Shown: positions 7,033 through 22,628 of the stretch, piece after piece
How the letters are laid out: the number at the start of each line of letters is the position of its first letter
How positions within the stretch are numbered: position 1 is the stretch's first letter
Source: Alphaproteobacteria bacterium
Lineage (GTDB): Bacteria > Pseudomonadota > Alphaproteobacteria > Rs-D84
Direction: 5' to 3'
DNA length: 32,000 nt
Assembly (NCBI GenBank): GCA_017475605.1
Contig: JAFVFD010000005.1
Coordinates: forward strand, 300,001-332,000
Made by a program: the position numbers and the translations under genes
The notes under the pieces: generated by a model
What the model was told of the DNA's origin: nothing
What the model saw: the letters and a program-made list of their open reading frames with translations, nothing else
Databases searched by the model: none

Positions 7033-7065
7033 AAAAAAACACCGGCATTTGCCGGTGTTTTTTTT
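7033..7065. terminator. Bidirectional rho-independent terminator between convergent genes
   Basis: Perfect palindrome A7-CACCGGC-ATTT-GCCGGTG-T8. It sits between the stop at 7025 (+) and the stop at 7064 (-). Confidence 0.8.
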
Positions 7066-8134
7066 AACTTAAAACCGCGGTAATTTGATCTTGCATCTGG
7101 AATGTCCCAAGTACCACCCACGCGATTATTGCCGATACCAGCATTATTCCAATACTGTTTAATACATTTGATATTGATTCCATTTTACGTACAGATTCAT
7201 CCAAATAATCATTCGCAATAGATATCATATTCTTGTCAAAATCTGTCATATCTGCATAAATCATCAAATCACCAATTATTTCCTTACTTGGAAAATCACG
7301 ACCTGTTTTGGACAGCGCAACCCCAAGGTTATCACCATTGGCAATATAATGTAATGCCATATCTAAAATACTGCGCAAATACCTGCGTGCGTTATCTGCC
7401 AACATACGCATGGCGTCCGGCATTGTTATACCGGCGGCAATCATAGAAGACAACGACATTAACCAACCAACCGACACATGTATTTTATATATATTCCATG
7501 GCGGCAATTTATCAAATTTTGCACGCAAACGACCAGACCAATTAGCCAATGATAACCACACAATAAATATCAGCACAATAAATAATAACGCAAATATATA
7601 CCAATATTTTACTGTGAAATTAGACATGGATATAAGGCCACCCGCCGCACCGCGCCATATAATATCGGACCCTGCAACTTCAACCAATGGTGGAACAAGG
7701 TATAACCCAACCATAACCACAATACCAAATGTTAACACCAACAAGAATAATGGATATGCGATTGCACTGCGCACTGCGCGACGAATACGCCCCGCACTTT
7801 CCACGACACGTGTTGTGTTTTCCAGTGCGATTACTAAATTAGAAATATTACCACTTGTTACCAAAAGTGTTTCTTCGTCCGGCAACCACCCACGCGTTGT
7901 TTCAGAAAAACTCATACCGCGTTCAAGGTTTTGTTGCCACGCACGCATAACAATTGCGAACGGCTCATTTGGGTTGCGACCATTATTAGATTCTATCATT
8001 TCAAGCCGCCCCAGCGCATTCATCAATGTAAAATCATTACGCAACAACGATGCCAATTTGCGTAACAAAGCAATACGTTTTTCTGTATTAAAACGAAATA
8101 CAAGTCGTGCATACCATTGGTTAAGGCGATTCAT
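7064..8134 (-). CDS. Type II secretion / type IV pilus platform protein (GspF/PilC family; PilR-like of type IVb pili)
   Basis: Polytopic membrane protein of about 356-368 aa with two repeated T2SSF-like halves, each a cytoplasmic helical domain followed by TM segments. The preferred start, MNRLNQWY at 8134, overlaps the ATPase stop (TGATG). The ORF track start is 8170. Confidence 0.85.
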   Translation of the reverse strand: MNRLNQWYARLVFRFNTEKRIALLRKLASLLRNDFTLMNALGRLEMIESNNGRNPNEPFAIVMRAWQQNLERGMSFSETTRGWLPDEETLLVTSGNISNLVIALENTTRVVESAGRIRRAVRSAIAYPLFLLVLTFGIVVMVGLYLVPPLVEVAGSDIIWRGAAGGLISMSNFTVKYWYIFALLFIVLIFIVWLSLANWSGRLRAKFDKLPPWNIYKIHVSVGWLMSLSSMIAAGITMPDAMRMLADNARRYLRSILDMALHYIANGDNLGVALSKTGRDFPSKEIIGDLMIYADMTDFDKNMISIANDYLDESVRKMESISNVLNSIGIMLVSAIIAWVVLGTFQMQDQITAVLS

Positions 8135-9783
8135 CAATACACCCCCGGACGATCTAATAATCCAACCCAACGTTCTAATTCATCAACCCCAATAATACCG
8201 GACAGCATCAATTCAGACGCAGATTCCTTTAATGTGCGGCCGTCCATTTCTTCCAACCAATACTTGACCGCATCATCGGTCTTGCCGGCCAATGCCAACG
8301 ACAAAAACTCACCATTTGTAACAATAACTTCACCCGCCTTGATACGACCGATTGTACCTGTTCCATGGCACATATCACACCCCGCCCCACGAATAAATAC
8401 CTGTTTTAAACCAACCTCGCCAAAGGCATCTATAACGCGTTTATATGCCGGGTGTTCCGGATGATCTATCAATCTTTCGCGACAATGTGGACAGACCTTT
8501 TTAAAAAGACGCATTGATATTAACCCCCGCATCAATGTTTCTTCTTTTAACTTGAATGGTTCAATTCCCATATCAAGCAATCGTGTCAATGCCGCCATTG
8601 CCGAATTAGCATGTAATGTCGTCCAAACATTATGACCCGACAATGCGCCACGCACTGTCAATTGTGCCGCCGCCAAAGTTCGTATTTCACCAACCATCAA
8701 TGTATCAGGGTCGCTTCGCAAAGCCGCCGCCAAAGCCTCGGTATATGCTTCATCGCGTTGCTCTTCATTCATGGCGTTTGTAACAGGCATCTGGTGCGCG
8801 CCAAAAATCTTTTGTTCAACAGGGTTTTCCACAGTAATCATATTAATTTCGTAATTATGTTCCTTTAACATCATGGACATATTACGAACAAGGGTCGTTG
8901 ATTTACCAGAACTTGTTGGACCGGCAACAATTACCAAACCTGTTGGAAACGACCGCATACGACGCAATAAATGTTGTTCATATGGACCAAATTCTTGTTC
9001 GGTTTTGATTCCTTCGTTTGGATTGTCGTACAACAGGCGCATTACGACATAGCGCGACCCAAATGCAATTGGGTTAAATTGCATACGAACACTTAAAATA
9101 CCCGCCGGCAAATATAAGTCTTTCGTTCCACGAAGTGGTGTACGACCATCTTTCTGGGCCGATTGGTATTCATTTTGCGCATAGTTCGCATTTGACATAT
9201 CCGCAGATGCAAATGCCGCACGAACAAAAGATTCACCCCACGCGGAATTATATTCCAATACAGGCTGCATACTGCCATCAATACGGAAATAAATTGTTGT
9301 TTGGTCGCCAACCTCTATATGAACATCTGATACCTTTTGTGCGGCGGCGCGTGCGATAATATCGACAAAATCTTTCTGCATTTGGTTATCATAATCGCGT
9401 GATGTACGCGACGATGCGCCACCACCAATACGCGCCTCGTATTCCTTGTAAATACCGGATACCAACCCTAAATCAGAATAAAATGGTGCGCGCACGACAT
9501 ATGATTTTCGTTTTAATAAATCAATAAATGCCAACACACGACCGTCATAGCGATGTGTTCGTGAAATAATAATTTCGCCGCCTGAAAAATACGCAACTAA
9601 ACTTTGCATATCTTTGGACAGCGCAATCGTCCCACCGGTTGCGGTCAATAACCTGTTACCGTTTGAAAACAAATATTCGATAATATCTTTGTTTTCAGCG
9701 TTTTCCAAACCGGCTGGAACCGATGGTTTTTGTTCCATTGATACTGTGTTATTATTCAAATCGCTATATTTTTCCATGTCCAT
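8134..9783 (-). CDS. GspE/PilB-family secretion ATPase (PilQ-like of type IVb pili)
   Basis: 549 aa. Contains Walker A GPTSSGKST, Walker B DPDTLMVGEIR, His box GHNVWTTLHAN and the tetracysteine CPHC...CDMCHGTG characteristic of T2SS/T4P assembly ATPases. Confidence 0.9.
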   Translation of the reverse strand: MDMEKYSDLNNNTVSMEQKPSVPAGLENAENKDIIEYLFSNGNRLLTATGGTIALSKDMQSLVAYFSGGEIIISRTHRYDGRVLAFIDLLKRKSYVVRAPFYSDLGLVSGIYKEYEARIGGGASSRTSRDYDNQMQKDFVDIIARAAAQKVSDVHIEVGDQTTIYFRIDGSMQPVLEYNSAWGESFVRAAFASADMSNANYAQNEYQSAQKDGRTPLRGTKDLYLPAGILSVRMQFNPIAFGSRYVVMRLLYDNPNEGIKTEQEFGPYEQHLLRRMRSFPTGLVIVAGPTSSGKSTTLVRNMSMMLKEHNYEINMITVENPVEQKIFGAHQMPVTNAMNEEQRDEAYTEALAAALRSDPDTLMVGEIRTLAAAQLTVRGALSGHNVWTTLHANSAMAALTRLLDMGIEPFKLKEETLMRGLISMRLFKKVCPHCRERLIDHPEHPAYKRVIDAFGEVGLKQVFIRGAGCDMCHGTGTIGRIKAGEVIVTNGEFLSLALAGKTDDAVKYWLEEMDGRTLKESASELMLSGIIGVDELERWVGLLDRPGVY

Positions 9784-9802
9784 AATAAATTATGCCAGTT
9801 TA

Positions 9803-10477
9803 TTATTTTGAATTTGTAACATTTAATGTTTGTGTCTTGCCGTCTTTGGTAAATATAACACCATCGTCCAGCGATATTGATTTAACCGTCCAGCCGTCCA
9901 ATGTGCGCCCAACCGAAACACGTTTATTTTGACCGGTTGTTAAATCTGCGACTGTTGCCTGTAATTGAGAACCCGCCCCAATAACATTGACCAATTTAAA
10001 CCGTTCACCAATTTTTGATTCTTGTTCTTCTTCGACAACTTTTTTATTAGTTGTTGCCTTGGTTGTCGTAGCGGTTTCGACCGCATTTTCCAAAGATTCT
10101 TTTTCGCGCGCCAAACGTGCCGCTTCGGCTTCTAATTTTGCCATTTCGGTTTCAAGTTCCTGCTGTTGTGCTTCGGCACGACCGGAAAGCGCATCAATTT
10201 CCATATGCAGTTTAATTTTTTCAGCCGCCAATCTGTCCAGGTCCAAATCTAATTGTGCGCGTTCTTTTTCCAATTGCATTAAAACCTTTTCTTGTTCCAA
10301 ATCTGTGATTTGTTGGAAAAGGCTGCCTTCGACCTGATATTCAGCAACCGATTCCGCCGACAATTCATCAAATTCAGAATCTGTGCCATCATCGGTCGCC
10401 ATCGCCGCAAACGATGACCCCACCAAGAAACATGTTGTAAGCGCAAAGAATGCGATTTTCTTTATTTTATTTAGCAT
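9803..10477 (-). CDS. Periplasmic PilP/GspC-HR-like protein with a long acidic coiled-coil linker
   Basis: Has a signal peptide (..VGSSFAAMA). About 110 aa are E/A/L/Q-rich heptad-like sequence (LEKERAQLDLDLDRLAAEKIKLHMEIDALSGRAEAQQQELETEMAKLEAEAARLAREKESLE). The C-terminal beta domain FKLVNVIGAGSQLQATVADLTTGQNKRVSVGRTLDGWTVKSISLDDGVIFTKDGKTQTL has the PilP/GspC HR pattern. Confidence 0.55.
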   Translation of the reverse strand: MLNKIKKIAFFALTTCFLVGSSFAAMATDDGTDSEFDELSAESVAEYQVEGSLFQQITDLEQEKVLMQLEKERAQLDLDLDRLAAEKIKLHMEIDALSGRAEAQQQELETEMAKLEAEAARLAREKESLENAVETATTTKATTNKKVVEEEQESKIGERFKLVNVIGAGSQLQATVADLTTGQNKRVSVGRTLDGWTVKSISLDDGVIFTKDGKTQTLNVTNSK

Positions 10478-11732
10478 AGATTATCACCTCATAGTTCCAC
10501 GTGCGATTAGATGCATTCCAATCACAGCTTGTCATATAAACACCGCCGAAATCATCGAATATCTGCATAAACTGCATCGGTGTTAGTTTTGATGATGCCG
10601 CGATTTCCACAACATCAAAATTCTTGGTTTCAACGCCATTTGTTACCGTATCAACAACCGTTTGAATATCTACATTCGTATCAATAGACTGAAATGCAGT
10701 CATAACATCACGAACGATTGTATCTGTATCGCGTTCATCTTGACTTGGTCTGGTTTCTATTTTTGGTAATGCCGCACGCACAGATAATAAATCTTCGGAC
10801 AATTCTTGAACAAATGCACCCGGCATTAATTCCGTTGCAATTAAATAAAAATCACCAATTGTCCCGTATGTACGACGAATTTGAACGGTCGCATATTTTT
10901 CATCACATTTTGCCGTCGTCTGGGTCCAGCCTGATATAGGCTGCATCAAGAAACCAATTGCACGATAGCAAATATCTGCACGCGCCGCGACATCTGGTAA
11001 TAATTCATATGGTGGCACGATTGGTTCGGGCGGTAATTTCTTTTCAATTTGGAATTGTTCGTCTAATTCTTTATTTTTTTCTTCTATCTGTCGGCGATAT
11101 TCTGCGACCTTTTCTGGATCTATTTGCGATATTTCATTATGCTCGCTAACCGATTTAACCACTGAATCACGATACAACATAACCATCGCCATAACAAATA
11201 ACAATACCAGTATTGCCGATATAATTATTGAACGCATCATACTTATCGACCGTAATACAGCATGCGAATGCCCGGTTATAACTTCATCTAAATCGCGTTC
11301 AACCGCGCGTGGCATTCCCCATGCGCCAGGTGCAATAAAGGCACCCCAATCGGGCATTTCGGACATTCTTGAATATTCTGCGCGCGCATCCGCTTCATTT
11401 TCATAAATACGATCAATTAAAATAATACCATTTCTGACGGCGACCATATAAAACCCTTGGTCTACTGCAAAAACCGCCAAGAAAGACGAATGTTCGGAAA
11501 GTGCATCTACAACCTCGGCTGCGGCGGACGGCATACCACCCTTGTGCCCGACACGACGCGAAGACAAACCAATCATAAAATTATATTCAATGTATAAACT
11601 GTAATGGCCATCCACACCATGTGCAAGGCGACGCGCATACGCACGACCACCCCCGTTTCCCGCGACAACAGGTTGCCAAAACAGCCCTACGGCATATTTT
11701 TTTCTATGAACCGATATAGTTTGATTTGCCAA
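10467..11732 (-). CDS. Bitopic inner-membrane protein, PilO-like (type IVb pilus accessory protein of R64/PAPI-1 type)
   Basis: 421 aa with a TTG start at 11732 preceded by GGTAGAGAG. It has an N-terminal cytoplasmic domain (KKYAVGLFWQPV...), a single central TM segment (IIISAILVLLFVMAMVMLY), a short coiled coil and a periplasmic C-terminal domain. Its size and its position directly upstream of the PilP-like, ATPase and platform genes match pilO-pilP-pilQ-pilR order. Family assignment is by architecture and synteny only. Confidence 0.45.
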   Translation of the reverse strand: MANQTISVHRKKYAVGLFWQPVVAGNGGGRAYARRLAHGVDGHYSLYIEYNFMIGLSSRRVGHKGGMPSAAAEVVDALSEHSSFLAVFAVDQGFYMVAVRNGIILIDRIYENEADARAEYSRMSEMPDWGAFIAPGAWGMPRAVERDLDEVITGHSHAVLRSISMMRSIIISAILVLLFVMAMVMLYRDSVVKSVSEHNEISQIDPEKVAEYRRQIEEKNKELDEQFQIEKKLPPEPIVPPYELLPDVAARADICYRAIGFLMQPISGWTQTTAKCDEKYATVQIRRTYGTIGDFYLIATELMPGAFVQELSEDLLSVRAALPKIETRPSQDERDTDTIVRDVMTAFQSIDTNVDIQTVVDTVTNGVETKNFDVVEIAASSKLTPMQFMQIFDDFGGVYMTSCDWNASNRTWNYEVIIYAK

Positions 11733-15049: not shown

Positions 15050-15106
<57 letters not shown>

Positions 15107-15126
<20 letters not shown>

Positions 15127-15162
15127 GTTAAAATAAAAAATACGCCCCTGTGGCGTATTTTT
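15107..15162 (+). repeat. Direct repeat copy 1 (56 nt): tRNA-fMet T-loop to 3' end plus its terminator
   Basis: AAATCCACACTCCGCAACCAGTTAAAATAAAAAATACGCCCCTGTGGCGTATTTTT is identical to 15346-15401. Confidence 0.95.
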
Positions 15163-15163
15163 T
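15135..15163 (+). terminator. Rho-independent terminator of tRNA-fMet
   Basis: AAAATACGCC-CCTGT-GGCGTATTTT followed by further T residues. Confidence 0.75.
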
Positions 15164-15345
15164 GTTTTAGTTGTGTTGTGATTTGTTGTTTGTGCCATGC
15201 AACACAGTTGCTTGGTTCAAAATTTGTATGCGCGAACGAGCATCGGGCCCCGCAAAATTTAAAAAATTTTGTGGGTGATACTAGCGAAGTTCAAGCAACT
15301 ACAAATTTGCGCACAGTCGCGGCGCATTTATGCGACGGACGAGCG

Positions 15346-15401
15346 AAATCCACACTCCGCAACCAGTTAAAATAAAAAATACGCCCCTGTGGCGTATTTT
15401 T
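15346..15401 (+). repeat. Direct repeat copy 2 (56 nt): displaced partial tRNA-fMet 3' end plus terminator copy
   Basis: Perfect 56/56 match to 15107-15162. The preceding bases (GAGCG) cannot form a T-stem, so this copy is a tRNA fragment and not a gene. Confidence 0.95.
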
Positions 15402-15485
15402 ATTTATTTTCCTAGGATACACCCCCTATTGAAAATATTGCTAGTGGCGCAATAAAATTAAATTATCAAAAACATGGGGGAAAAT

Positions 15486-15746
15486 ATGACACATGATGAT
15501 ATTTGGTCTGCGATTGAAAAATTCGCAACCGAACATGGAATGTCTTGTTCGGGCCTGGCGCGCAGCAGCGGACTGGACCCAACAACATTTAACCGCAGTA
15601 AACGTTGGTCCAAATTTGGTCAGCCGCGTTGGCCTTCGACCGCCAGTATTGCGAAAATATTATCATCAACAGGTCAAAAAATAGATGATTTTGTTAAATA
15701 TATTCCTGATGATATTAAAAAAAATGGACCTGGTAATCAGATGTAA
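15486..15746 (+). CDS. HTH transcriptional regulator resembling the N-terminal domain of CI/S24-type repressors (no peptidase domain)
   Basis: MTHDDIWSAIEKFATEHGMSCSGLARSSGLDPTTFNRSKRWSKFGQPRWPSTASIAKIL matches the conserved alphaproteobacterial repressor-like HTH pattern (GLA..aGLDPT.FN.SKR....RWPST.SI.KIL). The start was chosen at ATG 15486 because GGGGGA lies 5 nt upstream. The ORF track start is 15474. Confidence 0.7.
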   Translation: MTHDDIWSAIEKFATEHGMSCSGLARSSGLDPTTFNRSKRWSKFGQPRWPSTASIAKILSSTGQKIDDFVKYIPDDIKKNGPGNQM

Positions 15747-15775
15747 AAAAAAAACGCCCGTTTGGGCGTTTTTGT
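15745..15775. terminator. Bidirectional rho-independent terminator
   Basis: A-run, AAAACGCCC-GTTT-GGGCGTTTT, T-run, between the convergent stops at 15746 (+) and 15775 (-). Confidence 0.75.
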
Positions 15776-16617
15776 TATTTTTGTTTTTCCATTTCAGCAA
15801 TACATTTTTTAAGTGAATCTTTCCAATGTGGAATTTCAAGACCAAAAGTATTTATAATATCTGATTTATCCAAAACACTGTAATATGGACGCTTTGCGCG
15901 TGTTGGATATTCGGTCGTTTTTATTGGATTCACACGACATTTTAATCCAGATAAATCCATAATTTCATGCGCGAAATCGTACCATGAACAAACACCCATA
16001 TTTGTAAAGTGATATATACCACGAGTTTTTAGATTCATCTGTGGCAAGATTTTTACAATTGCATCTGCCAAATCAGCCGCATATGTTGGTGTTCCAATTT
16101 GATCAGCAACAACATTTATTGATTCTTTTTCTGCGCCAAGTTTCCGCATAGTTTTTACAAAATTATTTCCATATGGTGAATAAAGCCATGCGGTACGAAT
16201 TATAACCGAATGAATCGCATACCTTAACACCTTTACTTCACCGGCAAATTTTGTTTTACCATATATAGAAATTGGATTTATTTCGTCTTTGGTGCTATCG
16301 GGGCTATATGGTTTATGTGCCGTTCCATCAAAAACATAATCAGTTGATATATGAACTATTTTTGCGCCAGTTTTTGCAAGATTTGCTGGACCATCAACAT
16401 TTATCTTGGTTGCTAAATCTATATTATCTTCGGCTTTATCAACAGCGGTATATGCGGCACAGTTTATAATTGTATCAATTTTGTATTTTTTAACAAAATC
16501 TGCAACTAAACTTTCGTGTGTAATATCTAAATCATTAACATCTGTGCGTATTGCATCTGGTAAACGTTTAGACAATTCTGTCCCCAGTTGCCCATTACCG
16601 CCCGTTATTAAGTACAT
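15775..16617 (-). CDS. rfbD: dTDP-4-dehydrorhamnose reductase
   Basis: 280 aa. Contains MYLITGGNGQLG (Rossmann GxxGxxG), STDYVFDG and YGKTK (the YxxxK catalytic motif), all typical of RmlD. Confidence 0.9.
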   Translation of the reverse strand: MYLITGGNGQLGTELSKRLPDAIRTDVNDLDITHESLVADFVKKYKIDTIINCAAYTAVDKAEDNIDLATKINVDGPANLAKTGAKIVHISTDYVFDGTAHKPYSPDSTKDEINPISIYGKTKFAGEVKVLRYAIHSVIIRTAWLYSPYGNNFVKTMRKLGAEKESINVVADQIGTPTYAADLADAIVKILPQMNLKTRGIYHFTNMGVCSWYDFAHEIMDLSGLKCRVNPIKTTEYPTRAKRPYYSVLDKSDIINTFGLEIPHWKDSLKKCIAEMEKQK

Positions 16618-17158
16618 CTTTTAACCTCTTTGCAATTCTGTCTTTTTCACTTGTTATAATTTTATCCGCTGGAATCCGCCAATCTATATTTATATCAGGA
16701 TCATCGAAACTAATACTAAATTCAGATTCTTTGTGATATAAATTATCGCATTTATACGCAAAAACCGCCTTGTCAGAAAGGACAGAAAATCCATGTAAAA
16801 ATCCACGCGGTATAAACAATTGACGTTTGTTTTCATCGGATAATTCAACTGCAACATGTTTACCAAATGTTGGTGAGTTTTTTCTGAAATCAACCGCAAC
16901 ATCTAATACGGTGCCATATAAAACACGGACCAATTTTGCCTGGGCATGATTACCAGTTTGACAATGCAGACCACGCACCACGCCGTACGATGATTTTGAT
17001 TGATTATCCTGGACGAAACGATTTGTTATTCCATTTTTAACAAATTCGGCTTCGTTATAACTTTCAAAAAAATATCCCCTGTCATCGCGAAATATTTTTG
17101 GTTCAACGATGATTACCCCGGGCAATTCTGTTTTTATAAAGTTCATTTTTTTCACCAT
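16595..17158 (-). CDS. rfbC: dTDP-4-dehydrorhamnose 3,5-epimerase
   Basis: Contains FRDDRGYFFESY, VQDNQSKSSYGVVRGLHCQ and RQLFIPRGFLHGF, the RmlC cupin motifs. An alternative ATG lies at 17146. Confidence 0.9.
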   Translation of the reverse strand: MVKKMNFIKTELPGVIIVEPKIFRDDRGYFFESYNEAEFVKNGITNRFVQDNQSKSSYGVVRGLHCQTGNHAQAKLVRVLYGTVLDVAVDFRKNSPTFGKHVAVELSDENKRQLFIPRGFLHGFSVLSDKAVFAYKCDNLYHKESEFSISFDDPDINIDWRIPADKIITSEKDRIAKRLKDVLNNGR

Positions 17159-18020
17159 ATACTTTCTTTAAATATTCCTTGTATTTACCATCATGCAAAT
17201 CTTGTATTATTTTCAACATTTGTTCATTGTTGATAAACCCACAATTAAAAGCAATTTCTTCTATACAGGCAATTTTCAACCCCTGACGTTGTTCGATTAT
17301 TTGAACAAAATTACCAGCCTCCATTAAACTGTCTGGGGTACCTGCGTCCAACCACGCATTTCCGCGATGCATCGGAACAACTGACATACGCCCTTCGTAT
17401 AAATATTGATTATTTAAATCTGTTATTTCCAATTCGCCACGCGCCGATGGTTTAAGATTTTTTGCTTTTTCCACAACATCAGATGGATAAAAATATAATC
17501 CAACAGATGCATAGTTTGATTTAGGTTTTGCTGGTTTTTCTTCTATTGATATCGCACGAAAGTTTTCATCAAATTCAACAACACCAAATCTTTCAGGGTC
17601 CGAAACATGGTGCGCAAATATAGTAGCAGATTTTCCAATATTAGATTTTATTTTTTCTTTAAATTCTTTCAACTGACCATTTATATAAAATATATTATCG
17701 CCTAATATTAAACACACATCATCTTTATCAATAAAATCTGCCCCAATTGTAAAAGCCTGGGCAATTCCCTTGGGTTCGGCCTGGACTGCATATTTTATAT
17801 TCATACCCAATTGTTTACCATCACCGAACAATTGTTCAATATTTGGTGTATCTTTTGGTGTTGATATAATAAGTATATCACGAATACCAAAAAGCATTAA
17901 TGTTGAAAGTGGATAATATATCATCGGTTTATCATAAACCGGTAATAATTGCTTGGATATTGTTTTGGTAAGTGGATAAAGTCTTGTACCACTGCCCCCA
18001 GCCAGAATAATACCTTTCAT
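17103..18020 (-). CDS. rfbA: Glucose-1-phosphate thymidylyltransferase
   Basis: Contains MKGIILAGGSGTRLYPLTKTISKQLLPVYDKPMIYYPLS, the canonical RmlA N-terminus. 305 aa. The 3' end overlaps rfbC by 44-56 nt. Confidence 0.95.
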   Translation of the reverse strand: MKGIILAGGSGTRLYPLTKTISKQLLPVYDKPMIYYPLSTLMLFGIRDILIISTPKDTPNIEQLFGDGKQLGMNIKYAVQAEPKGIAQAFTIGADFIDKDDVCLILGDNIFYINGQLKEFKEKIKSNIGKSATIFAHHVSDPERFGVVEFDENFRAISIEEKPAKPKSNYASVGLYFYPSDVVEKAKNLKPSARGELEITDLNNQYLYEGRMSVVPMHRGNAWLDAGTPDSLMEAGNFVQIIEQRQGLKIACIEEIAFNCGFINNEQMLKIIQDLHDGKYKEYLKKVYGEKNELYKNRIARGNHR

Positions 18021-18081: not shown

Positions 18082-18714
18082 TTATTTAAGGCATTTTTTA
18101 AGTTCTGAATAGTCTTCTATTATATCAATATTTTTATTTTTAATTTCTTCTGCGGCATGTATTTTTTGCTTTATCAGCACAATATTAGGGTGTGATTGTA
18201 ATTCGTTATTTAATTTTTCAATTGCCCAATCTATTTCTGATGTATCTTTTATAAAAATCGGCATCACAGAATCAGCCGCCGAATATAACGCATTATGTAA
18301 ATCGGTTTTATAATCATCAATAACAGATAAATATGCATCTATATGCTTATTTTCATGATTAAGTATCGCTGTATATGAACAACTGTTTTTGTTATGTCTT
18401 TTATCAATTTTTACCAGAAAATCGCTATATCCAATTGTTGAATATACAGATTTTAATGAAATACAAAACCCATCTTCGATTGATGTAATATCGGTATTAA
18501 TATCATAATTATCAACCAATGTTGCCACAACATTACCATGTAATAAATCCATTGATTCGTGTGGTTGAATTACACTTTTATTCCATTGTGGAATATTGAT
18601 AACTATTTTTGGTTTAATCTTGTATGTGGCGCATTCGTTGGCATTGGCAATATTTAACACACCAAATAAAGATAAAAATATTGCTAAAAATTTACATGAA
18701 TTAAACATTTCCAC
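18082..18714 (-). CDS. Secreted hypothetical protein with an HExxH motif (possible DUF922-like Zn-metallopeptidase)
   Basis: Signal peptide FLAIFLSLFGVLNIANA|NE. HENKH is encoded at 18343-18357. There are four Cys residues. The start is GTG 18714 or ATG 18708, either of which overlaps the virB4 stop (18701-18703). Hand counts on sampled lines give about 23-25% GC, the lowest in the window. Confidence 0.45.
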   Translation of the reverse strand: MEMFNSCKFLAIFLSLFGVLNIANANECATYKIKPKIVINIPQWNKSVIQPHESMDLLHGNVVATLVDNYDINTDITSIEDGFCISLKSVYSTIGYSDFLVKIDKRHNKNSCSYTAILNHENKHIDAYLSVIDDYKTDLHNALYSAADSVMPIFIKDTSEIDWAIEKLNNELQSHPNIVLIKQKIHAAEEIKNKNIDIIEDYSELKKCLK

Positions 18715-21121
18715 CCGATTGCTTTTTCAGGTATTCTGCCACAAAATTAGTTCCATACATTTTATATAATTCTTCGGCCAATAATACCGATGGTCGCCCA
18801 GATTCAAACAGACGCAATAAATTACCCAGCCCCCCCAATTCAGTATTTAATATCACAGATTCACCATTAACCGGTCGTGATAACAATACCGCGCGTTTAA
18901 GGTTTGGATATGCCTTGCCCTGAATAAATGCCATTTCAAGTGGATTAAGATTCCAGTGTGCATAATCACCTGCATCTGCGGCTGGATTACGGAAGAATAA
19001 TACTGTTTGCGCCTGGCCACGAACAACATCACCAATCCCCAGTTTATCCAGTACATTTGCGCGTTGGAATGCGACCATATATGCCTGACGATTTTTACGC
19101 CCTTCTTGTAATCCGGCAATAAAGTTATCGCGGAACATTTTGTTTTCCAACATTGGTGCGGTTTCATCAATCATAATAAGTGATGGATTGCCACCCGATA
19201 CAGTTGTTGTATTAATACGGTGTAAAATATACGAAATAACCGCTGGGGATAAAACCTCGTCCTGTAATATATCTGTAAAATCAAATGTAGTAAGGCGCGC
19301 CCCAAGGTCCAATGTATCAGAATCTTCGTTAAACATATCGCCATATTGTAACGGGTCAACCCATTTCTTTAATGCTGCACGCATCGGGCCGGCGGATGAA
19401 AAACAACTTTCCCAAAGATTTTTTAAAACCCTGTCTTTATCTGACAAATAATCAAAATTGACAGATACCGCACGCGCAATTTCATCCGCGGACGCTGCAT
19501 CATTTTGCCCCGAAATAATAGCAAACCAACGACGTAAAAATGCGCGATTTTCCGCCGTATCCGGCATTTTAAGTGGATTTAATCTTGTCTCAAAAGATTG
19601 TTCAACCGGATTTGTATTCTTTTCCTTGCCACGCATAGTGATATATTTACCACCAACGGCCAGGGTAAATATTTCCGCCCCTTTATTCCGGTCAAAGAAG
19701 AATGCTTTTAATTTCGGATGACGCAACGATTGCGCTATTAAAAAACTAAATAATGTTGTTTTACCACCACCGGTTGGACCAATAGTAAGTGTATGCCCCA
19801 CCGCCGCCGGTTTATCTGAAACATGGAATTGGAACATATATGGTGTTCCCTGGGCGGTTGGGAAAACAACCAATGGGCCCGGTCCCCAATCAGAATTTTC
19901 AACACCGCGTGGTGTACTGGACATAGGAATACAGACCGCCGCCGTTTTTGATAATAATTTAAAACTGCGCGGGAATACATCAAACCCTGGAATCTGGGCG
20001 AACCATGAAACCTTGGATGCAAAAGATTCAACAACCGGCGATACACCAAATGATGCCGATATTTTCTTAAACTCATCTACATATTTTGCTAATTCTTCGC
20101 GCGTTGCGCCGAATATAACAAATAACGGGTAATAATTAACCAAACTCTGATTTCCAGAAATATTTTCATCCATTGCAGATTTTGCTTCTGATACCTGGGT
20201 TAATGTAGATTCTTGGTCTTCATCGGCGGTTGATGTACGTTGACGCAAAGTAGATTCTACATCGGCCGTACCCATAATATTAAAGCCATTCATACAAATC
20301 ATTTCTGTTTGAATAGTAGATACAGAATTAAAGAAATCTTCATCCAAATAATCTGGCGATATACGGAATGAAAGCAATGCCGCAAATGTTTGGGCATTGC
20401 CACTGCTGTACCTTATTATACCATCATTTCCAAAATCGACATTATCAACCGCCACATTTTCCGCTATTTTATTATCAGCCACCACAGGCATCGGTTTAGA
20501 TAATGGCGACAAAATACGACCAAAAAATCGTGCCATATTATCGGTTGTGTTATTTTGTAATACCTTTGGTTTATATGCGGATAATATAGATTCAATATAG
20601 TTACCATATTGATTCAATTTTTCGCGCGCACCATTTCCAGCGACAGACAACACAATGTAATAGTTATTTAAATAAATACGCAATCCCTGGGACCGCCATT
20701 TATTATAAATACCCTGTAATACAGGCCCATCAAACTCATAGTCCTGATTATCAAGGGCGGCATCACGCACCATATAAAAACGCATTGTTACATTTGGATC
20801 GCGAATTTGATTGAATAACTGAGTCCGAAGATCCAAGAATTTTTCACGTGTCGCATCATCTTGCATACTGGTTTGTACACCTGAAACCCTGTACACCCTG
20901 GTAAGTGCGCCATTTGTTAATTCCATTGAATTATCGGTAAATACACGACGGAAAGGTAAATAATTCGCATAACGCGCATAACCGAAATTCGGGAAAATAC
21001 GTCTTGTCAAAGCGGGTAAATATATCATTAAAACAATAAACACAAATAACACCGCCATAACCAGTATAGTCATAGTTATGGAATAACCACCGCCGGCAAA
21101 ATATTCAAAAAATCCTTCCAT
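18701..21121 (-). CDS. virB4: Type IV secretion system ATPase VirB4/TrbE family
   Basis: 806 aa with an N-terminal TM segment, Walker A GPTGGGKTT and Walker B SLIMIDE, and a length typical of VirB4. It follows the VirB3-like gene with no gap. Confidence 0.9.
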   Translation of the reverse strand: MEGFFEYFAGGGYSITMTILVMAVLFVFIVLMIYLPALTRRIFPNFGYARYANYLPFRRVFTDNSMELTNGALTRVYRVSGVQTSMQDDATREKFLDLRTQLFNQIRDPNVTMRFYMVRDAALDNQDYEFDGPVLQGIYNKWRSQGLRIYLNNYYIVLSVAGNGAREKLNQYGNYIESILSAYKPKVLQNNTTDNMARFFGRILSPLSKPMPVVADNKIAENVAVDNVDFGNDGIIRYSSGNAQTFAALLSFRISPDYLDEDFFNSVSTIQTEMICMNGFNIMGTADVESTLRQRTSTADEDQESTLTQVSEAKSAMDENISGNQSLVNYYPLFVIFGATREELAKYVDEFKKISASFGVSPVVESFASKVSWFAQIPGFDVFPRSFKLLSKTAAVCIPMSSTPRGVENSDWGPGPLVVFPTAQGTPYMFQFHVSDKPAAVGHTLTIGPTGGGKTTLFSFLIAQSLRHPKLKAFFFDRNKGAEIFTLAVGGKYITMRGKEKNTNPVEQSFETRLNPLKMPDTAENRAFLRRWFAIISGQNDAASADEIARAVSVNFDYLSDKDRVLKNLWESCFSSAGPMRAALKKWVDPLQYGDMFNEDSDTLDLGARLTTFDFTDILQDEVLSPAVISYILHRINTTTVSGGNPSLIMIDETAPMLENKMFRDNFIAGLQEGRKNRQAYMVAFQRANVLDKLGIGDVVRGQAQTVLFFRNPAADAGDYAHWNLNPLEMAFIQGKAYPNLKRAVLLSRPVNGESVILNTELGGLGNLLRLFESGRPSVLLAEELYKMYGTNFVAEYLKKQSGGNV

Positions 21122-21418
21122 TTATGCCACCAATCGTTTCGGTATTTTTTGTTTAAATAACTGTATTTTTGCCGCAACTATCTGCCCCAGTTGCGGATCG
21201 CGTTTAGAATAAATCGCCATAATTGAATGAACCACAATAACAGATACCAAAAAATACAGCGGATTTATTGCGTCTTTAAGCCCAGATACCAACAATCCAG
21301 CAACAAAAAACACTATAAATATCAGAAATTGAACAGCAAAATTTATCACAGCAAGATTATAAGGCACATAAAATATGCGCGCTGGATTTGCCAATGCTTT
21401 TAATACTTGCTGTTTCAT
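21122..21418 (-). CDS. virB3: Type IV secretion system protein VirB3/TrbD-like
   Basis: 98 aa, with LKALANPARIFYVPYNLAVINF followed by two hydrophobic helices, the VirB3 architecture. It abuts the virB4 start directly (stop at 21122, ATG at 21121). Confidence 0.7.
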   Translation of the reverse strand: MKQQVLKALANPARIFYVPYNLAVINFAVQFLIFIVFFVAGLLVSGLKDAINPLYFLVSVIVVHSIMAIYSKRDPQLGQIVAAKIQLFKQKIPKRLVA

Positions 21419-21431
21419 TTTCTCTCCGGTG

Positions 21432-21634
21432 AATTAATTATAACAATTTCAACAATTTTCAACAAGCATAAAAAGCAAATTATAAAATTTGTTAAATTTG
21501 TTAAAAAATCTCTTAATTTTAACATGTTAAAAAGGCAATAAAACTATCAACAATTTTACCAAAATCCGCTAAAAACCGGCAAAAAATTGTTAAAAACTTG
21601 TTAATAAAACGTTCAAAAAAGTTTTCAACAATTT
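21432..21634. promoter_or_regulatory. Array of TCAACAATTT / AAAT(T)TGTTAA motifs plus a 16-bp perfect palindrome in the virB3-rpmJ divergent region
   Basis: Three exact TCAACAATTT 10-mers occur at 21449, 21547 and 21625. Related AACAAT/AACAAG copies occur at 21442 and 21461, in 9-10 bp phasing. Inverted-orientation copies AAATTTGTTAA x2 are tandem with a 9-bp period at 21485-21504. AAATTGTTAA lies at 21584 and CTTGTTAA at 21597. The palindrome TTTTAACATGTTAAAA spans 21517-21532. Confidence 0.5.
21437..21465 (-). promoter_or_regulatory. Candidate promoter of virB3-virB4
   Basis: On the minus strand: TTGTTG (21465..21460), 17 nt, TATAAT (21442..21437), then the RBS GGAGA before ATG 21418. It overlaps the repeat array. 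Confidence 0.4.
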
Positions 21635-21938: not shown

Positions 21939-22628
21939 TCAAAATAATGAAAAATCGTTCATAAATGCCGCGCGCAATACATCGTTTATTTCAATAGTCC
22001 CCAGACCCGCATTGCGTAAATATTCAATCTGAATTGGTTTTGGTGTATAAATGGCGGCACCATGGTCGGCGCGGTCTGGTACCGATGAAATACGTTGTGC
22101 AGGCATAAATTCTATTTTTGAATCTTTATCTGCCACCGCCGCAAAATTAATATCAGAAATACAATTTTCACAACCTTTATTAATAATTGCGGTACCTGAT
22201 AATTTTGAATAACTGCCCCGGTTTGCAATCAATTTATTCTGTAATAAAATACCGGTATTTTCCGACATATGATGCGCGATACATTCGTATGTTAAATTAT
22301 TATAATTATCCAACATTATATGCCCACGAATTTCGGAATTTTTCCCGGTGTTTTTTATAAAAATATTCAAAAAAGCCGGCTTTTTATTTTTTATATTTAC
22401 CGATAAAAACACATTTTGGTTTGGTATATTGACATCGATATTTAATTTTTTTTCACCATCTATTTCACCAACATAAATAATATGAATTGGCAAATCATAA
22501 TTTTTATCAATTTTGCCATTTTCTATTGTTGATAAATCTGGACAAAAAACACCATCGCGGTAAACTATTGTTTCCGCAGGGAATGGTTTTATATTGAAAT
22601 TTTCCCACATGTATGACATATTAAGCAC
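21939..22628 (-). CDS. Short stand-alone SufB/SufD-family (SufD-like) protein
   Basis: 229 aa. The repetitive beta-helix-like middle and the C-terminal HGAAIYTPKPIQIEYLRNAGLGTIEINDVLRAAFMNDF match the SufD/SufB C-terminal signature (H.a..g.....Q.fYL..RGl....A..ll..gF). No sufB, sufC or sufS gene is adjacent. Confidence 0.6.
   Translation of the reverse strand: MLNMSYMWENFNIKPFPAETIVYRDGVFCPDLSTIENGKIDKNYDLPIHIIYVGEIDGEKKLNIDVNIPNQNVFLSVNIKNKKPAFLNIFIKNTGKNSEIRGHIMLDNYNNLTYECIAHHMSENTGILLQNKLIANRGSYSKLSGTAIINKGCENCISDINFAAVADKDSKIEFMPAQRISSVPDRADHGAAIYTPKPIQIEYLRNAGLGTIEINDVLRAAFMNDFSLF

Follow-up and report, generated by a model that had tools for sequence, protein, structure and literature searches.

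Why does a gene for a predicted exported, metallopeptidase-like protein stand directly behind virB4, in a slot whose product is, by sequence, neither VirB6 nor TrbJ/VirB5? The question is raised by a type IV secretion system (T4SS) locus in an alphaproteobacterium of the order Rs-D84 (assembly GCA_017475605.1, contig JAFVFD010000005.1, positions 300,001 to 332,000); "the window" below means this whole stretch of 32,000 nucleotides (nt). An earlier note had described here an isolated virB3-virB4 pair followed by a gene for a protein with an HExxH motif (the HExxH gene and HExxH protein), and implied that this protein belongs to the T4SS. The answer that we favour, with somewhat better than even confidence, is that a periplasmic envelope housekeeping metallopeptidase was captured into the virB3-virB4 operon. 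What speaks for a captured housekeeping enzyme is the wide distribution of its family, outside Rs-D84 too and there with no link to a T4SS.

Organization of the virB3-virB4 locus

The virB3, virB4 and HExxH genes form one overlapping unit on the minus strand, with rmlA, rmlC and rmlD next to it. The unit is composed as follows (positions in the window).

21122-21418, minus strand: virB3, 98 amino acids (aa); PF05101 match above cut-off (E 5.5e-07), weak match to NF010474 (VirB3)
18701-21121, minus strand: virB4 ATPase, 806 aa; PF03135 (2e-13) and TIGR00929 (6e-113)
18082-18708/18714, minus strand: gene of the predicted exported HExxH protein (P0001), an open reading frame (ORF) of no Pfam family

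The two vir genes meet with zero gap. The best equivalog-type match of the virB4 product is the VirB4 model PRK13898, with TrbE models behind it, and a single copy of virB4 was detected in the genome by tblastn. Two starts are available to the HExxH gene. From GTG at 18714 the ORF comprises 210 aa and overlaps virB4 by 14 nt, while from ATG at 18708 it comprises 208 aa and shares 8 nt with the end of virB4 (ATGTTTAA). The ATG is the likelier start because GGGTGG lies just upstream and because 208 aa is the length in nearly all close homologs and in the ESM Atlas record. ORF coordinates and Pfam matches bear out the abutting genes and the overlap of 8-14 nt given in the earlier note. The 210-aa ORF with its signal peptide, four Cys residues and HENKH motif, followed by rmlA/C/D, is likewise read from the sequence as described there.

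Sequence features and conservation of the HExxH protein

Three segments of the HExxH gene are important for what follows.

18640-18708, minus strand: Sec signal peptide, residues 3-25, with predicted cleavage between ANA and NE as read from the sequence
18343-18357, minus strand: HENKH (H120-E121-x-x-H124), putative zinc-binding and catalytic site on a long helix (112-134)
18124-18126, minus strand: codon of the invariant D197, candidate third metal ligand on a helix (176-199)

Based on its Sec signal peptide the protein is predicted to be exported, as had been proposed, and its homologs have the same signal-peptide layout. The mature protein contains four Cys residues, the first of them at +3. 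A VirB7-like lipoprotein was considered and rejected, because there is no lipobox and the Cys lies 2-4 residues past an AxA-type cleavage site.

In an alignment of 70 family representatives, residues G60, H120, E121, H124, D197 and C208 are invariant, and C28, C84 and C112 nearly so. The same invariant residues are found in 30 homologs drawn across Alphaproteobacteria, and the HExxH motif singled out in the earlier note is thus conserved in both sets. The family can be recognized by an active-site signature, S-C-x-[YF]-x-x-[IV]-L-x-H-E-x-x-H-[VI], and by a C-terminal one, N-x-x-[IVL]-D-[TSN]-x-x-x-Y-x(6)-C-x-x-W. Clustering of its members yields 457 groups at 90% identity and 246 groups at 50%. 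No family for this protein was found in Pfam or NCBIfam, and no relative in a sequence search of PDB. Within the genus, HExxH proteins share 50-70% identity, compared with 85-93% for VirB4. Because of the invariant Glu of the HExxH motif, the invariant Asp, the Sec signal and the four Cys residues, we take the protein to be a probable active, disulfide-bonded periplasmic zinc peptidase, with D197 as a putative ligand.

Predicted fold and relation to DUF922

The AlphaFold2 model of the HExxH protein has a predicted local distance difference test score (pLDDT) of 91.7 and a predicted template modelling score (pTM) of 0.81. Strands are placed within residues 36-103, followed by the HExxH helix (112-134) and helices on to residue 209 (range 112-209). 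Foldseek found nothing in PDB at E <=0.001; its output was noise, mostly tyrosine phosphatases with template modelling (TM) scores of ~0.1. Exhaustive comparison with VIA-align gave Z 5.3 for the SprT domain 6mdx, 5.2 for abylysin 4jiu and 4.8 for TTHA0227 2ejq, all of them at background level, and these minimal zincins were the sole weak VIA-align matches to span both sheet and helices. The helical half was aligned to TrwJ/VirB5 (7o3v_F) over 105 residues with Z 5.2 and a root-mean-square deviation of 6.3, also at background level.

The hallmark of zincins, an invariant HExxH on a helix together with a downstream candidate third ligand (D197), is present in the model, and the predicted sheet-plus-helix fold could be that of a minimal zincin. 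The metalloprotease-like site suspected in the earlier note can be placed in a predicted structure. Minimal zincins (4jiu, 6mdx, 2ejq) are similarly small and proceed from a mixed sheet through the HExxH helix to a C-terminal helical part. In contrast to them, the putative third ligand of the HExxH protein is an Asp ~73 residues past the motif, the protein is predicted to be exported and disulfide-bonded, and Z scores remain at background.

The earlier note had suggested DUF922 (PF06037 / COG5661, "predicted secreted Zn-dependent protease") as a possible family. P0001 gives no match to the DUF922 model at a cut-off as loose as E 10. Weak Pfam matches were obtained for 5 of the 70 representatives, the best with E 7.1e-05, and none of 10 class-wide homologs exceeded the Pfam gathering threshold of 27 bits. 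Profile comparison by hhalign, using a DUF922 alignment that is narrow (Neff 2.4), gave a probability of 61% and E 8e-05 for an alignment with DUF922 that spans 137 columns and keeps HExxH in register. Of the 30 named neighbours in the ESM Atlas, 27 are DUF922 clusters (score 0.91). The structural model of DUF922 shows the same order of main elements, namely a sheet followed by three helices, of which the first is long and bears HExxH, the second is short, and the third is again long and bears the Asp. It gives no solved homolog either, and it also produces a weak match to TrwJ/VirB5. In PMC3650047, which surveys HExxH families, DUF922 is predicted to be zincin-like.

These links are weak but consistent, and they suggest that the HExxH family is distantly related to DUF922 without belonging to it, so that the earlier proposal held for a relationship and failed for membership. 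Both families are small, exported by prediction, alphaproteobacterial and experimentally uncharacterised. Four conserved Cys residues and the C-terminal C-x-x-W distinguish the HExxH family, and its late motif N-x-x-[IVL]-D-[TS]-x-x-x-Y is set against Y-D-x-x-T-x-H-G in DUF922. The models also differ, as the extra helix inserted in the DUF922 sheet is absent from the HExxH protein, which has one additional helix and a strand of its own.

Linkage to virB4 within Rs-D84

The HExxH family was found in 196 of 201 Rs-D84 genomes, in most of them as a single copy. All 22 genus-level loci examined carry the gene directly behind virB4, and the same adjacency was observed in 9 of 12 loci in the first set from other families. 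Outer neighbours of the genus-level loci vary and include rmlA, rmlC, a SufBD-like gene and others. The recurrence in 22/22 and 9/12 loci shows that the adjacency of virB4 and the HExxH gene is not due to chance, and a homolog behind virB4 in related genomes, for which the earlier note proposed to look, is present in most of Rs-D84.

An exception is a clade in which the gene is linked to mltA, a lytic transglycosylase gene. Families f1, f3 and f4 and one f2 genome have the HExxH gene behind virB4. Two further f2 genomes have it next to the virB3-virB4 pair but in the opposite orientation, with a Mur ligase gene behind it. Throughout f5 and f6, which are represented by five genomes, the HExxH gene is located directly behind mltA, often overlapping it, with virB3-virB4 elsewhere. 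In a maximum-likelihood tree of 46 homologs, mltA-linked copies fall into a single clade (support 96/90) that arises from within the virB4-linked ones and is placed next to the divergently oriented f2 pair. The simplest history is a single capture behind virB4 in the ancestor of Rs-D84, and later a single move to mltA.

In the two f2 genomes with the gene on the opposite strand, the slot behind virB4 is occupied by a PBP5-like D-Ala-D-Ala carboxypeptidase gene with a SPOR domain (G042, L033 8928-10130) and by a 271-aa ORF (G046, L038). Tandem HExxH paralogs, in two to three copies, were found behind virB4 in the Enterousia genomes G002, G018, G020 and G025 (L040-L043), and tandem paralogs also occur in unrelated alphaproteobacteria (L081, L083, L089, L090).

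Distribution outside Rs-D84

A profile search of 301 genomes drawn evenly across Alphaproteobacteria detected full-length homologs in 61 of them, one of which (G100) is an unpublished genome on which nothing else in this account depends. Outside Rs-D84 the family is present in 58 of 298 genomes (~20%). Genomes as large as 4-6 Mb are among the positives, and two to four copies are often present. Of the genomes with the HExxH family, VirB4 is present in 19 and absent from 39; of those without it, VirB4 is present in 30 and absent from 210. The occurrence of the family in 39 genomes that lack VirB4 argues for an ancestral function that would not depend on the T4SS, and since most Rs-D84 genomes possess a single copy, that copy should still serve the ancestral function.

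In the 19 genomes with both genes, the HExxH gene and virB4 are never adjacent; either each is on a contig of its own or a distance of more than 100 kb separates them. Neither virB4 nor mltA was found within ~6 kb of the HExxH gene in any of 20 loci outside Rs-D84, and virD4 was near it in one, at a distance of 4 kb. Neighbours in these 20 loci comprise xth-like nucleases (four times), DapE-like M20 peptidases (twice), a SPOR protein, CorA, MarR and others. No conserved partner gene was found outside Rs-D84; neighbours of no known family are mutually unrelated, and some are wrong-frame ORFs. The T4SS membership implied by the earlier note is thus not supported, in view of the 39 of 58 positive genomes without VirB4, the lack of adjacency in the other 19, and the mltA-linked clade inside Rs-D84.

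The T4SS of the genome

The genome measures 817 kb and is 94% complete, and close relatives are titled Candidatus Enterousia. The lineage has been described as gut bacteria with genomes below 1 Mb and an inferred dependence on other cells, in an account that does not mention a T4SS (PMC12306168, 2025). No gene for virB2, B5, B6, B8-B11 or D4 is present within the window. In the whole genome, T4SS genes were located as follows (contig and coordinates).

C1:318701-321418: virB3-virB4 islet
C5:72403-77080: virB8-virB9-virB10 islet
C4:6891-7868: virB11, standing alone
C1:350720-352993: virD4, standing alone
C5:122332-128921: five tandem polytopic VirB6-like genes, very divergent, of 428, 422, 400, 479 and 442 aa

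VirB9 and VirB10 have one match each in the genome. The former (522 aa) ends in a C-terminal peptidoglycan-binding SPOR domain, and the latter, at 785 aa, is of unusual length and carries a Cys-rich extension at its C-terminus; both lie in C5:73144-77080. The five VirB6-like genes have no match in Pfam or in a PDB profile search, and Pfam detected no VirB6 anywhere in the genome. As queries for them we used the two or three tandem TrbL-positive paralogs of family f3. One gene of the array matches an f3 paralog at 7e-23 and the other four match weakly. Through this transitive link the array is probably VirB6-like and a likely counterpart of Rickettsia virB6a-e.

A genome-wide search for TrbC/VirB2 gave no match above the cut-off, and small ORFs at 15100-15746 of the window are not pilin-like. 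VirB5 (PF07996) has no match in the genome. No dedicated VirB1 gene was seen beside the vir islets, VirB1 not having been specifically sought, and one general SLT protein is present. Wall hydrolases of the genome comprise this SLT, five M23 peptidases and MltA.

The T4SS is therefore a nearly full, scattered rvh-like system in which virB3-virB4 makes up one islet. The pair is isolated locally, as the earlier note had it, and is not an orphan in the genome, where virB8-10, virB11, virD4 and the VirB6-like array, the genes left to be located, lie elsewhere. A decaying T4SS remnant was rejected as an explanation, the other core genes being intact. The rvh "archipelago" of Rickettsia consists of scattered islets with five VirB6 paralogs and normally without VirB5, and housekeeping passengers are present inside its vir operons (PMC2653234, Table 2). 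The system studied here resembles it (Gillespie et al. 2009, PMC2653234) in the scattering of islets in a reduced alphaproteobacterial genome, the virB3-virB4 unit, five tandem divergent VirB6-like paralogs, the missing VirB5 match and non-vir genes in vir operons. It differs in a VirB6 array detached from virB3-virB4, in virB11 and virD4 standing alone, in the lack of a virB4 duplicate by tblastn, in the SPOR domain of VirB9 and the length of VirB10, and in the HExxH gene that occupies the slot behind virB4. The arrangement is a lineage-specific form of a pattern already known, a scattered rvh-like T4SS with a non-vir gene in the operon, and this gene comes from an unnamed and widespread family.

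Proposed capture of an envelope peptidase

According to the favoured explanation, the product of the HExxH gene would be exported by Sec and reside in the periplasm, probably with two disulfides for which C28-C208 and C84-C112 are candidate pairings, as an active zinc metallopeptidase of minimal zincin-like type from an unnamed family related to DUF922. Its ancestral job would be independent of type IV secretion and most likely in the cell envelope, possibly in the processing of peptidoglycan or envelope proteins. In the ancestor of Rs-D84 the gene would have become fixed directly behind virB4, and would now be co-transcribed and translationally coupled with virB3-virB4, while one sub-lineage would later have relocated it behind mltA. 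Gene structure, conservation, distribution, synteny and the predicted fold are results of the analysis; zinc binding, peptidase activity, periplasmic location, substrate and co-transcription are inferred. Envelope-type neighbours of the family, namely MltA, a Mur ligase, a SPOR protein and a DapE-like M20 peptidase, recur and offer a hint towards the cell wall or envelope. By analogy, the pattern appears to parallel that of housekeeping genes in Rickettsia vir operons. The earlier interpretation would be retained with regard to a zincin-like exported protein in the slot behind virB4, and abandoned with regard to a T4SS part and an orphan gene pair.

Several observations weigh against capture of an envelope enzyme. 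The assignment to envelope or peptidoglycan rests on about four independent neighbourhood events. The adjacency to virB4, often with overlap, has outlived many rearrangements of the flanks, which fits a functional tie equally well as hitch-hiking. The genome shows no gap among its cell-wall enzymes that this protein would be needed to fill, and the HExxH protein as sole peptidoglycan endopeptidase was rejected in view of the five M23 genes. Neither Foldseek nor VIA-align gave a fold match with a convincing Z. Outside Rs-D84, the HExxH family is commoner in genomes with an rvh-like VirB4, the two occurring together in 19 genomes compared with 9.5 expected under independence, in a sample confounded by the relatedness of small-genome lineages. 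Finally, contigs of a sheep-gut metatranscriptome cover virB3, virB4 and the B3/B4 junction of a near relative; that no such RNA contig covers the HExxH gene is uninformative, as contigs cannot show absence.

Alternative explanations

The strongest alternative, a serious rival that we hold to be less likely than not, is that the protein is a dedicated T4SS accessory enzyme recruited in Rs-D84. It may cleave peptide cross-links and thereby clear a way through the sacculus for the VirB8-10 core, which would make it the peptidase equivalent of VirB1, or it may process a subunit of the machine, and co-translation with VirB4 may match its dose and timing to assembly. The order-wide adjacency to virB4, often overlapping and with changing flanks, favours this explanation, as does the only other fixed partner, mltA, where an overlap is seen again. 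The f2 loci, with the gene beside virB3-virB4 on the opposite strand together with a Mur ligase, and the PBP5-like carboxypeptidase gene behind virB4 in G042, speak in the same direction. So do the SPOR domain on VirB9 of this genome, the lack of a dedicated VirB1 gene beside the vir islets (with no search aimed at VirB1), and the enrichment of the family among genomes with an rvh-like VirB4. On the other hand, the gene is single-copy in most Rs-D84 genomes and orthologous to genes in the 39 VirB4-less genomes, so that an older, T4SS-independent function would still have to be served. In addition, linkage to mltA is a single evolutionary event, the two genes are never adjacent in the 19 other genomes that have both, and other peptidoglycan hydrolases are available in the genome.

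VirB1-type enzymes are specialised lytic transglycosylases of T4SS. Likeness to them lies in a putative cell-wall-related exported enzyme encoded in a T4SS operon, and in the coupling of the HExxH gene to mltA in one Rs-D84 clade. Fold and chemistry are wholly different, the protein studied here being metallopeptidase-like and VirB1 a lysozyme-like glycosidase. A further-reaching form, in which an old periplasmic metallopeptidase turned into a true accessory of the rvh-like T4SS, produced in step with VirB4 and either opening the cell wall locally together with MltA-type glycan cutters or maturing a subunit, is offered tentatively, and we regard it as unlikely. If true, it would amount to a T4SS helper of a new class; the T4SS of this lineage goes unmentioned in PMC12306168.

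An effector or toxin secreted to act on a partner or host cell is improbable. It could be suggested by the inferred dependence of Rs-D84 on other cells (PMC12306168), by evolution faster than that of VirB4 (see the within-genus identities above), by tandem paralogs in some genomes, and by a very weak Tox-MPTase2 match of one distant homolog (E 0.054). However, the classical Sec signal and four conserved Cys residues fit a protein that stays in the periplasm, and the HExxH gene has no conserved immunity-like partner next to it. In Rs-D84 it belongs to the core as a near-universal single copy (196/201), and it is found in housekeeping contexts in alphaproteobacterial genomes of 4-6 Mb.

A structural stand-in for VirB5/TrbJ at the stalk or pilus tip, with HExxH as a mere structural metal site, is the least probable explanation. 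Position behind VirB4/TrbE, a size of ~200 aa, the signal peptide, the lack of a PF07996 match in the genome and the weak helical alignment to 7o3v_F agree with it, but Z 5 on helices is background for VIA-align and the DUF922 model gives the same weak match. The protein has no sequence match to VirB5/TrbJ, and its N-terminal half is modelled as a beta-sheet, unlike the VirB5 bundle, which is all-helical and bears an appendage. Catalysis is the probable role of the invariant Glu of HExxH, the family exists in VirB4-less genomes, and rvh systems are normally without VirB5 (PMC2653234).

Other features of the window

Genes adjoining the conserved unit, all assigned by Pfam, and the region upstream of it are listed here.

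17103-18020, minus strand: rmlA
16595-17158, minus strand: rmlC
15775-16617, minus strand: rmlD
21447-21632, minus strand: region upstream of virB3; the 200 nt that precede the gene contain ATTGTTGAWA three times and CTTGTTGAAA once

The distance from the HExxH gene to rmlA is 61 nt on the same strand, and no terminator-like site was found between 18020 and 18082. The rmlA/C/D genes (15775-18020) are neighbours outside the conserved unit, as the downstream gene varies among relatives. ATTGTTGAWA has six matches in the window, with 0.8 expected, and three of the six are upstream of virB3; the repeats at 21447-21632 may represent a control region or an operator array. G+C content is 0.31 in the segment 18001-19000. 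Recent acquisition of the HExxH gene, which the low G+C might suggest, was rejected, because it is a near-universal core gene of Rs-D84 and its tree follows the families.

A 229-aa ORF at 21939-22628 (minus strand) resembles the C-terminal half of the SufBD core, with 25.1 bits against a Pfam threshold of 27. It is kept next to ychF in relatives and may be a shortened Suf component. Two tRNA-Met (CAT) genes are located at 808-884 and 15050-15126, the second flanked by a DUF374 gene and rmlD and close to a small helix-turn-helix-like ORF at 15474-15746. A cluster at 7064-11732 (minus strand) resembles a type IVb pilus system of the R64 thin-pilus-like kind and includes the following genes.

10467-11732, minus strand: PAP_PilO gene
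minus strand, in the same cluster: 224-aa gene of no known family
8134-9783, minus strand: T2SSE ATPase gene
7064-8170, minus strand: T2SSF gene

In the published account of Rs-D84 biology, type IV pili are reported for another lineage only (PMC12306168).

Significance

An exported HExxH family that lies outside the Pfam models and is present in ~20% of the sampled alphaproteobacterial genomes now has a signature by which it can be recognized. The strict and often overlapping linkage of its gene to virB4 is also a caution for genome scans, since operon linkage of this kind in a reduced genome does not by itself prove membership in a machine. For Enterousia, the T4SS is an obvious candidate for interaction with partners.

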